Positions 2,414 through 4,061 of a stretch of DNA of 31,034 bases are shown in pieces. The notes below the pieces were generated by a model. The model did no database searches. It was given only the letters and a program-made list of their open reading frames with translations, and was not told the DNA's origin. The position numbers and the translations under genes were made by a program. The stretch lies in the NCBI GenBank assembly GCA_038133115.1, contig JAYPSS010000001.1, positions 1 through 31,034 on the forward strand, written 5' to 3'. Every line of letters begins with the position of its first letter. Position 1 is the first letter of the stretch. Source of the DNA: Flavobacteriaceae bacterium. GTDB lineage: Bacteria > Bacteroidota > Bacteroidia > Flavobacteriales > Flavobacteriaceae.

Positions 2414-4030
2414 CTAGTTTCTTGTTTTCTTATATTCTAGTGCTGCTTTAACAAAGCTTACAAATAACGGATGTGGATTTTCAACCGTACTCTTGTATTC
2501 TGGATGATACTGAACACCAATAAACCATGGATGCTCAGCAAGCTCAACAGCCTCGGCAAGTCCCGTGTCTGGATTAACACCAACGACTTTCAGACCACCC
2601 TCTTCTAAAGCGTTTATATATTCATTATTTAATTCAAATCGATGTCGATGCCTTTCGTCAATATGAAGGTTTCCGTAGGCTTCAGCCAATTTCGAACCTT
2701 CTAAGATAGAACACTTCCACGAACCGAGGCGCATTGTCCCTCCTTTTTCAGAGATCGCTTTTTGCTCTTCCATTAAATGAATCACAGGGTGTTCAGTATT
2801 TTCATCGACCTCAACACTATTCGCTGCGCTCAACCCTAACACATTTCTCGTAAATTCAATTACTGCCATCTGCATCCCTAAGCAAATTCCTAAGAAAGGT
2901 ATCTTAGATTCTCGAGCGATACGAACTGCATCAATCTTTCCTTCTATACCTCGACTACCAAATCCCGGTGCTACAAGAACGCCATCTAATGAAGAAAACA
3001 AATGCTCAATAGATTCGTTTTCTAATTCCTCAGAATGAATAGTGACTACATCAACCTTTACTTCATTCATTGCTCCTGCATGAATAAAAGCCTCTAAAAT
3101 TGACTTATACGAATCTTGAAGCTCCACATACTTCCCAATAAGTCCAATTTTAATCGTCTCCTTGGGATGAGCTAGCGTTTCAACAAAATGTTCCCACTTA
3201 CCCAAATCAGCATCATCGCTTGAGGGTAAACCTAATTTTTCTAGAACAACTTTATCTAAACCTTCCTCTCTCATTAACAGTGGAACCTGATAAATCGTAC
3301 TCGCATCAATAGATTGGATGACCGCACGCTCCGGAACATTACAAAAACGGGCCAACTTAGATCTTAAATCTTGATCTAATTCACGCTCAGTTCTACAAAC
3401 AAGAACATCCGCCTTAACCCCACTTTCCATGAGTGTTTTAACAGAATGCTGAGTAGGTTTGGTTTTCAATTCACCAGCTGCAGCTAAATAGGGAACAAGA
3501 GTAAGGTGCACCACCATTGCGTTTTGTTCGCCTAATTCATAAAGCAATTGTCTAACCGATTCGATATAAGGCAGTGATTCAATATCACCTACAGTACCCC
3601 CAATTTCTGTGATTACGATATCGTAATCTCCAGAATTACCGAGGATCTGAATACGATCTTTGATTTCATTGGTAATATGAGGTACGACTTGAACAGTCTT
3701 CCCTAAAAAGTCTCCTCTGCGCTCCTTCTCAATTACGCTTTGATAAATGCGACCCGTAGTCACATTATTTGCCTGAGATGTAGGTACGTTAAGAAATCGT
3801 TCGTAGTGACCTAAATCAAGATCGGTTTCGGCTCCATCATTAGTTACATAGCATTCACCATGTTCATAGGGATTAAGTGTTCCTGGATCAACATTAATGT
3901 AAGGATCTAGCTTCTGAATAGTGGTACGATAACCTCTTGATTGTAGAAGTTTCGCGAGTGAAGCTGCAATAATACCTTTACCTAAAGATGAAGTAACTCC
4001 TCCCGTAACGAAAATATATTTTGTAGACAT
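2414..4030 (-). CDS. pyrG: CTP synthase
   Basis: [43 protein letters not shown] and QYHPE motifs. Start moved from 4054 (inside the predicted -7 box) to ATG 4030 (MSTKYIFV). Confidence 0.98.
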
Positions 4031-4053
4031 GGTAAACTTTCTTTTACGGGGCA

Positions 4054-4061
4054 TAAAGGTA
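4054..4061 (-). promoter_or_regulatory. Putative Bacteroidota -7 element (TACCTTTA) for the pyrG-yidC-mnmA operon
   Basis: One mismatch to TAnnTTTG, 23 nt upstream of the pyrG ATG. A TTG lies at 4086-4084 (22-nt spacer). Confidence 0.55.

Follow-up and report, generated by a model that had tools for sequence, protein, structure and literature searches.

The window analyzed here is the first 31,034 nucleotides (nt) of contig JAYPSS010000001.1 (assembly GCA_038133115.1), from a small marine member of the Flavobacteriaceae whose genome assembly comprises 1.47 Mb in 232 contigs with a G+C content of 41%. Our subject is pyrG, a minus-strand gene encoding cytidine triphosphate (CTP) synthase, and in particular its short leader, whose predicted 5' end is complementary to three codons near the beginning of the coding sequence. 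A conserved RNA helix maintained by selection very probably joins the predicted 5' end to the start region. We also lean, with modest confidence, toward the view that pyrG here and in much of the class Bacteroidia is controlled by a start-site switch of the type described for the Escherichia coli and Salmonella genes pyrC and pyrD.

The features of the locus are collected in Table 1. Read on the minus strand, all of the coordinates given in the original prediction for the promoter box, the C-run, both helix arms, and the GAAA/TTTC pairing were correct. The longest open reading frame (ORF) begins at an ATG at 4054 (4054-4052), inside the -7 box, and was rejected as the pyrG start; the corresponding extension contains in-frame stops in several genomes of the same genus (L007, L008, L009, L013, and L015), and the start is therefore the ATG at 4030, as originally assigned. 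The conserved distance from the box to the CCCG motif described below likewise marks the pyrG promoter and the true start codon and argues against a start at 4054. The longer ORF adds the residues MPRKRKFT, and automatic annotation may make pyrG eight codons too long. From its start codon the gene reads ATG TCT ACA AAA TAT ATT TTC GTT ACG GGA GGA, with GTT at 4009-4007, ACG at 4006-4004, and the first GGA at 4003-4001. The intergenic region between pyrG and the divergent neighboring gene measures 90 nt, and the conserved string caaaagata upstream of pyrG is explained by the likely promoter of that neighbor, TATCTTTT. No candidate regulator gene adjoins pyrG.

Table 1. Features of the pyrG leader, the start of its coding sequence, and the neighboring gene, in window coordinates
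Feature	Position	Strand	Remarks and basis
-7 box of primary-sigma promoter, TACCTTTA (consensus TAnnTTTG)	4054..4061	-	Sequence; conservation
C-run CCCC	4048..4051	-	Predicted +1 at C4049, with C4050 as -1 and C4048 as +2; from the box+5 rule
G4047 (+3) and A4045 (+5), proposed alternative purine starts at low CTP	4045..4047	-	Proposed start-site use
5' arm CCCGUAA of long-range helix	4044..4050	-	Sequence and RNAfold
5' strand of second helix, GAAAGU	4036..4041	-	RNAfold minimum free energy structure
pyrG start codon AUG	4030-4028	-	Inside the 35-nt loop of the hairpin; stops in relatives' upstream in-frame extension
3' strand of second helix, AUUUUC (Ile-Phe codons)	4010..4015	-	RNAfold
3' arm UUACGGG, codons 8-10 (GTT ACG GGA, Val-Thr-Gly of the invariant FVTGG motif)	4002..4008	-	Sequence and RNAfold
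pyrG (CTP synthase) coding sequence	2414..4030	-	538 codons plus stop; 60-99% identity to pyrG of relatives
Divergent neighboring gene (context, outside the element)	4121..4990	+	Likely promoter TATCTTTT at 4096-4103, plus strand

On the minus strand the box TACCTTTA (4061-4054) is followed by TG, by CCCC (4051-4048), and by GTAAAAGAAAG; after the C-run comes GTAAAAGAAAGTTTACC and then the ATG (4030-4028). The box is kept as TAyCTTTR at pyrG in all 21 genomes of the same genus and in many other genera. According to 5'-end mapping in Flavobacterium psychrophilum, the box of primary-sigma promoters (TAnnTTTG) spans -12 to -5 (PMC9723704), so +1 was placed on C4049, within CCCC, where transcription of pyrG should start, giving a predicted 5' untranslated region (UTR) of about 19 nt. 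The original prediction had set the start window on the C-run or G4047, and published mapping leads to the C-run as well. This rule of a start 5 nt past the box (box+5) comes from one Flavobacterium, F. psychrophilum, whose own pyrG has its mapped start at box+5 (TACTTTTG CCAC then G, with a 5' UTR of 32 nt; PMC9723704), and it has some play, the mapped start of Bacteroides thetaiotaomicron pyrG lying 3 to 4 nt past its box. The model behind a sigma-70 promoter scan is not applicable to Bacteroidota promoters. The CCCCG at 4051-4047 has the layout of a pyrC/pyrD start window, in which C residues are directly followed by G. At the tRNA-Met promoter of F. psychrophilum, TATATTTGCACCCGC (the TTTGCACCCGC type), mapped starts fall on the last C and on the next G (PMC9723704), and Bacteroidota polymerase can therefore start at C or G in this context. 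In the genome studied here, 193 likely promoters of protein genes have an exact box; the commonest +1 nucleotide in this set is A (42%), and none has CCCG at -1 to +3.

The sequence CCCGTAA at 4050-4044 is the exact reverse complement of TTACGGG at 4008-4002, and GAAA at 4041-4038 faces TTTC at 4013-4010. Both pairings had been proposed from inspection and both are present in the RNAfold minimum free energy structure, the second one extended to GAAAGU (4041-4036) with AUUUUC (4015-4010). Relative to the AUG the arms of the long-range helix lie at -20 to -14 and at +23 to +29, closing a 35-nt loop that holds the start codon, and the 3' arm directly abuts GGA GGA (Gly-Gly). A transcript starting at C4050 folds with -12.9 kcal/mol (z = -1.96; 7 of 200 shuffled sequences fold as well) and one starting at G4047 with -6.5 kcal/mol (z = 0.1), so that, as had been anticipated, the stem is full in the C-start transcript and weaker in the G-start transcript; the 5' arm of the hairpin begins at the 5' terminus of the long form, and shortening the transcript weakens the structure. 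We also scored 688 places in the genome where a box-like motif is followed by an ATG opening a long ORF, taking the best perfect helix between bases beginning 2 to 4 nt past the box and the stretch from -14 to +48 of the ATG. On this measure pyrG ranked first of the 688, with a score of 18, and just two other pairs reached 16.

The dependence of folding on start position was expressed as an opening cost, the free energy needed to clear all pairs within -15 to +15 of the start codon together with the pairs that enclose that stretch. An earlier accessibility measure, which barred pairing within -12 to +16 only, was dropped as insensitive because the helix encloses this region rather than pairing with it. 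For transcripts starting at -1 (C4050), +1, +2, +3 (G4047), and +4, the opening cost in the window is 11.1, 9.4, 7.1, 5.2, and 3.2 kcal/mol; the corresponding means are 9.4, 7.7, 5.9, 5.2, and 4.5 kcal/mol for 85 leaders with CCCG and 5.8, 4.9, 4.8, 4.6, and 4.5 kcal/mol for 97 other leaders. The first three nucleotides of CCCG leaders thus carry 4 to 6 kcal/mol of opening cost, which, as modeled, would be what a start-site switch needs.

Start selection sensitive to the ratio of CTP to guanosine triphosphate (GTP), coupled to translational control, was reportedly described for pyrC and pyrD by Wilson et al. in 1992, Sorensen et al. in 1993, and Liu and Turnbough in 1994. In those E. coli and Salmonella genes, a high CTP/GTP ratio leads to starts at C, and with the two extra C residues the 5' end forms a full hairpin that masks the ribosome-binding site; when the ratio is low, G is the first nucleotide and translation proceeds (PMC6524683). 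The pyrG leader shares with them a start window of C residues followed by G, a hairpin at the extreme 5' end completed by the additional C residues of a C-start, a place in the pyrimidine pathway, and the lack of a regulatory protein; as proposed here, its hairpin would likewise block the initiation of translation. It differs in that the gene is pyrG, which encodes the CTP-making enzyme, and in that the promoter is of the Bacteroidota -7/-33 type rather than a sigma-70 promoter. There is no Shine-Dalgarno sequence to hide; instead, the 3' arm lies in the coding sequence at codons 8 to 10, the AUG sits in the closed loop, and synonymous codons are frozen. Switching has been demonstrated for pyrC and pyrD, whereas for pyrG it is proposed from sequence and folding.

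To gauge conservation, 198 pyrG leaders were assembled, 30 from the same genus, family, or order, 80 from named genomes, and 89 drawn across the class Bacteroidia; relatedness inflates all counts of leaders, and families and distinct sequence types are given on that account. The comparisons draw nothing from two unpublished genomes (G128 and G205). Within the genus, down to 75% protein identity, the box, two to three variable bases, and CCC(C)GTA recur with constant spacing, and the remainder of the leader varies. The same layout is found in Flagellimonas, Croceitalea, Eudoraea, Aequorivita, and Leeuwenhoekiella, in the Crocinitomicaceae, in Sphingobacterium and Daejeonella, and in many further families. 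In 85 of 182 Bacteroidia leaders CCCG occurs with constant spacing to the box, and the G and the TA after CCCG persist even in leaders where they bulge out of the helix. An unbiased search compared every leader position as far as 150 nt upstream with the start region and kept the best perfect helix; in 59 of the 198 leaders, representing at least 18 families, this helix began 2 to 4 nt past the box, and neighboring offsets held 0 to 8 leaders each. A score of at least 16 was reached by 31.8% of cognate arm/target pairs versus 11.8% of noncognate pairs (permutation P < 1e-4, uncorrected for relatedness) and by 0.6% of arms taken from just upstream of the box. The element is thus not local to flavobacteria but extends across the class Bacteroidia, with its partner arm sometimes at the start codon.

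The C-run is linked to codon choice in the gene. The Thr codon of the 3' arm is ACG in 54 of 80 genes with CCCGT leaders versus 4 of 102 without, and leaders of the CCCG type have ACG at the site in 73% of cases, whereas elsewhere in those genes it accounts for 17% of Thr codons, so the choice of ACG does not reflect background codon usage; in the other leaders ACG makes up 1.3% at the site and 13.5% elsewhere in pyrG. In one genome ACG accounts for 60% of Thr codons and yet the site is ACC, and there the leader, CCCGGTTAC, is the exact complement of GTA ACC GGG (L136). Matched changes of this kind recur: GTT pairs with leader TAAC, GTA ACG GGA with CCCGTTAC (L193), GTC ACG with CCCGT-A-GAC (L101), GTG ACG with CCCGT-A-CAC (L189 and L194), and GTA ACC GGA G with CTCCGGTTA (L143). 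In the Crocinitomicaceae, GTA ACC GGG GG is matched by CCCCG-TA-GTTAC(AAA), although GGG otherwise makes up 3 to 8% of Gly codons. In genes with nonmatching codons the partner is found elsewhere, within the leader itself or on or just before the start codon (L087, L098, L109, L154, L163, and L172). The 3' arm abuts the start codon in CCCGTAAA..TTTACGGGcATG (L087) and CCCGTATT..AATACGGGgtg (L163) and covers it in CCGTGTTGA..TCAACACGGtg (L172) and CCCGACA..aTGTCGGG (L109); a further pair is CCCATAAA..TTTATGGGcATG (L154).

In 36 diverse leaders of the CCCG type, 84% of the cells of a stated 9-pair helix were paired versus 33 to 52% when the partner was slid by one to three columns, and three of the nine pairs showed changes on both sides. 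RNAalifold found no consensus structure in these 36, because the register of the helix differs among lineages through the bulged TA and one-base shifts; for 18 Flavobacteriaceae it returned a 6-bp CCCGUA/UACGGG helix without variation. The second helix varies within the genus in step with the Ile/Val-Phe codons, being GAAAGU/AUUUUC here and GAAAAU/AUUUUC or CAAAAAC/GUUUUUG in relatives. The covariation with the Val-Thr-Gly codons for which the original prediction had called was thus found, in the distribution of ACG and in the matched leader changes. That promoter constraint on the leader and protein constraint on the codons should be complementary merely by coincidence could be argued from the single-sequence z score of just -1.96 and from the fact that the invariant Val-Thr-Gly fixes five of the seven bases of the 3' arm, but we find this barely credible in view of the first rank among 688 pairs, the site-specific ACG, the compensatory variants in several families, and the permutation test.

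We also considered that CCCGTA might be a DNA operator for a repressor overlapping the start site, to which the codon complementarity would be incidental. The hexamer is conserved even where its TA is bulged out of the RNA helix, and in the Vibrionales and E. coli the CCCG forms part of an inverted repeat flanking the -10 box. An operator would, however, produce neither a site-specific codon choice nor compensatory changes in the leader, nor would it move the complementary arm to the start codon, and the locus has no adjoining regulator gene to supply the repressor; we regard this explanation as highly improbable.

A related motif is present at pyrG well outside the Bacteroidota. Past sigma-70-type -10 boxes, the pyrG leaders of E. 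coli, the Vibrionales, the Pasteurellales, the Methylophilaceae, and others have CCCGT(C), which was present in 20 of 75 sampled leaders and mostly as CCCGTC. The E. coli K-12 leader (L207:125-217, minus strand) reads TATACT gcttt CCCGTC, and its initiation region has been given as CCC (PMC12709180). Its predicted fold pairs CCCGUC with GGC GGG and GGUUAU with GUGACC, in the Val-Thr-Gly-Gly codons, with z = -0.6, not better than shuffled sequences. CCCGTC past a -10-like box is found in many Gamma- and Betaproteobacteria, and Halomonas and the Pseudomonadales have CCCATC (L208-L287). The proteobacterial and Bacteroidia leaders have in common the gene and a CCCGT motif 5 to 6 nt past the downstream element of the promoter; they differ in that the former have another promoter type and a Shine-Dalgarno sequence. 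A literature search found no demonstrated mechanism for the proteobacterial CCCGT(C) promoters of pyrG. Since CCCGT occurs at pyrG behind two unrelated promoter types, the motif is tied to the gene and not to the kind of promoter, and the Bacteroidia element is, on this comparison, a variant of a wider and largely undescribed pyrG design rather than an invention of the Bacteroidota.

Other Bacteroidia leaders follow different plans. A second class, found in Flavobacterium (L038 and L111-L118) and B. thetaiotaomicron (L201:3770-3840, minus strand), has mapped starts at a G preceding T7 in F. psychrophilum and at a C or T preceding T5 in B. thetaiotaomicron. In a third class, found in Winogradskyella, Psychroserpens, Formosa, Cellulophaga, and Maribacter (L019, L031, L051, L053, L064, and L067-L077), the box is followed by CCTGCGTT..AACGCAAC-ATG, which forms a local hairpin from the predicted start to 2 to 3 nt before the AUG; a one-base shift of the start costs this hairpin about 4 kcal/mol. 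In family f44 (L142 and L149), the 5' end is CCCG or CTCCG and folds into a local hairpin (CCCGTAcggataCGGG; CTCCGTacacaaACGGAG); a stem resembling a terminator and a run of T residues come next, some 50 nt ahead of the ATG, and this leader may represent the sensor in attenuator form. In genus g42 (L124, L127, L129, L130, and L139), an element TTCCTCTGGTYAGGGA is conserved some 40 nt ahead of the pyrG ATG, and its CCTCTGG is reverse-complementary to the core of the loop bound by PyrR.

The C-run itself invites an explanation by CTP-dependent reiterative transcription (slippage) on CCC(C) rather than by a choice of start, in which extra C residues added at high CTP would lead to nonproductive release, as with uridine triphosphate (UTP) at E. 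coli pyrBI, or would lengthen a C-tract pairing into GGN GGN and tighten the hairpin. A homopolymer run of at least three at the start is the known requirement for slippage (PMC6524683; PMC8812562), and CCC(C) is such a run. In E. coli the CCC initiation region of pyrG slips at 10.1%, and GGA GGA directly after the 3' arm offers a natural target for extra C residues; the Bacteroidota leaders that start with G or C and then T5 to T7 resemble the slippage design that responds to UTP. Hybrids of rC with dG nevertheless slip poorly, and the E. coli slippage was itself called not high (PMC12709180). The conserved G and TA past the C-run and the stepwise loss of stability as C residues are removed agree no less well with start-site choice. 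Slippage in place of start-site choice seems to us distinctly improbable; the two could also act jointly.

Several observations weigh against a start-site switch. The single-sequence fold is just about two standard deviations better than shuffled sequences, and in the main leader type the AUG lies in the loop and not in the helix, so that inhibition of initiation is an assumption. About one-tenth of CCCG leaders have no obvious partner (e.g., L133, L157, and L173). Both mapped pyrG starts in the phylum, those of F. psychrophilum and B. thetaiotaomicron, belong to the different leader class in which a T-run follows the start. A second box-like motif, TAGATTTA, lies at 4115-4108 on the minus strand and is conserved only in the closest relatives (96 to 99% identity); a start from it would fall at A4103, 73 nt upstream of the AUG. 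Contigs from RNA libraries (3738-4153, 3738-4368, and 3947-4157) span the whole intergenic region and give no support for a start at 4049, with the caveat that the public RNA runs over the locus are assembled contigs, unstranded and lacking a pileup of ends, and carry no information on transcription start sites; if these contigs derive from RNA rather than carried-over DNA, some transcripts would start farther upstream.

The last of these points concerns CCCG itself. Both here and in F. psychrophilum it typically stands directly past the box at tRNA and rRNA promoters as well, so that a C-run by itself is no proof of CTP sensing. On contigs C18, C43, C49, C51, C105, and C220, tRNA promoters and, on C18, probably an rRNA promoter share TATATTTG-CA-CCCGC, and this GC-rich start-site stretch resembles the discriminator of stringently controlled promoters. 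One could accordingly picture a fixed 5'-terminal hairpin formed from one invariant start, which would hold translation constantly low, protect the 5' end from decay, or serve as the target of a protein or small RNA, with CCCG acting as a growth-rate or stringent discriminator without specificity for CTP. Promoters of the TTTGCACCCGC type (TTTG-CA-CCCG-C) precede tRNA genes here and tRNA-Met and rRNA genes in F. psychrophilum, and the third leader class keeps a 5'-terminal hairpin beside the AUG with no C-run, so that the hairpin and not the C residues may be the conserved principle. A discriminator specific to the Bacteroidota would not be expected to recur as CCCGT at the pyrG start behind the unrelated promoter of the Proteobacteria. 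None of the 193 exact-box protein-gene promoters has CCCG at -1 to +3, and it is hard to explain with an unmoving start why exactly the first three nucleotides should carry some 4 to 6 kcal/mol. We consider a fixed hairpin unlikely, though it is an explanation to be taken seriously. The original prediction is thus supported in part: the position, conservation, covariation, and folding of the element speak for it, and it is amended in three respects: pyrG shares CCCG with tRNA and rRNA promoters, the element ranges over the class Bacteroidia with a partner arm that can shift to the start codon, and CCCGT is also found at the pyrG start of Proteobacteria.

To our knowledge, control of pyrG has been worked out only in Bacillus and Lactococcus; literature searches found no demonstrated control mechanism for pyrG of E. 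coli and no description of pyrG control in the Bacteroidota. In Bacillus subtilis and Lactococcus lactis, CTP-sensitive reiterative transcription controls an attenuator (Meng, Turnbough & Switzer 2004; PMC7039003): the Bacillus leader has a GGGC start and an intrinsic terminator, and at low CTP added G residues pair with the terminator and prevent termination (PMC7039003). The present leader resembles this system in the gene, presumably in the CTP signal, in the action of polymerase at a homopolymer run at the start, and in the lack of a regulatory protein. It differs in having a CCCG run, no terminator, and a partner for the 5' end in the translation start region. A terminator scan found no terminator-like site in 3900-4300, and with no GGGC start either, the contrast that had been drawn with the B. 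subtilis attenuator holds.

Nor does the leader conform to other known forms of pyrimidine control. A search of 3800-4300 against Rfam to E = 10 returned no match to the PyrR binding loop (RF00515) and nothing else except a chance match to a snoRNA. The T-run at or after the start that marks UTP-sensitive reiterative designs of the pyrBI, codBA, and upp type is absent here, though it is present in the Flavobacterium and Bacteroides class of pyrG leaders. The other pyrimidine genes of this genome are without the present design, as pyrD starts right after a terminator with no such leader and pyrB follows pyrR. The C-terminal part of a PyrR homologue (NF003549, E = 4e-19; contig C42, L204:1259-1486, plus strand) overlaps the pyrB ATG in an ATGA, and the sequence upstream of it reads N. 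The de novo genes may, by analogy with Bacillus, be under PyrR control and pyrG under a separate control specific to CTP. Elsewhere in the genome, at about 198-300 on the plus strand of contig C6, TAGTTTTA CCCCGTGAAA ATG opens a 17-codon ORF, MTQHIITPIRRISRRRP, which has a cluster of Arg codons and may encode a leader peptide; a gene of the ornithine/aspartate carbamoyltransferase family lies 4.6 kb downstream of it.

What was observed or computed comprises the anatomy of the element, where it lies with respect to the box, how it is conserved and covaries, and how its folding energies depend on the start; the start-site switch that we favor for pyrG would build on this as follows. The gene would be transcribed from the primary-sigma promoter with its box at 4061-4054, with the start window on CCCCG (4051-4047). 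Transcripts starting at C4050 or C4049 would carry the whole 5' arm CCCGUAA and pair it with the UUACGGG of codons 8 to 10, and the CCCGUAA/UUACGGG and GAAAGU/AUUUUC helices would together close a hairpin around the AUG. Because ribosomes of the Bacteroidota depend on an unstructured start region and not on a Shine-Dalgarno sequence, initiation would require the hairpin to melt first; the lack of a Shine-Dalgarno sequence in these bacteria would also explain why the 3' arm lies in codons 8 to 10 and the AUG in the closed loop. Transcripts starting at G4047 or A4045 would lack the C residues and leave the start region mostly open. C is a poor initiating nucleotide, and the share of C-starts should therefore rise with the CTP pool or, more exactly, with the CTP/GTP ratio. 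High CTP would thus yield closed mRNA and little CTP synthase, low CTP would yield open mRNA and more enzyme, and no regulatory protein would be required. We infer the start sites, their CTP dependence, and the effect on translation, and as compensating mutations keep the arrangement across the class Bacteroidia, the supply of CTP is probably gauged by the letter at which transcription begins.

A broader and more speculative possibility, which we think rather doubtful, is that many phyla share an ancient CTP sensor requiring no protein, namely the CCCGU with which pyrG mRNA begins; its preferred partner would be the codons for the universally conserved Val-Thr-Gly-Gly of the nucleotide-binding loop, and slippage might perhaps steepen its response by way of GGN GGN. 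Such a sensor would be compatible with unrelated promoter types because only the initiating nucleotides would matter. If this were true, regulation would extend into the coding sequence and freeze synonymous codons. In the leaders compared here, an arm of a regulatory RNA would lie within the most conserved codons of the enzyme, and the site-specific use of the rare codons ACG and GGG amounts to selection on synonymous sites. We know of very few cis-regulatory RNAs in the Bacteroidia, and a start-site switch at pyrG would supply a concrete one for these bacteria, which count major groups of the sea and the gut among them and whose promoters and translation initiation are unlike those of the textbook.

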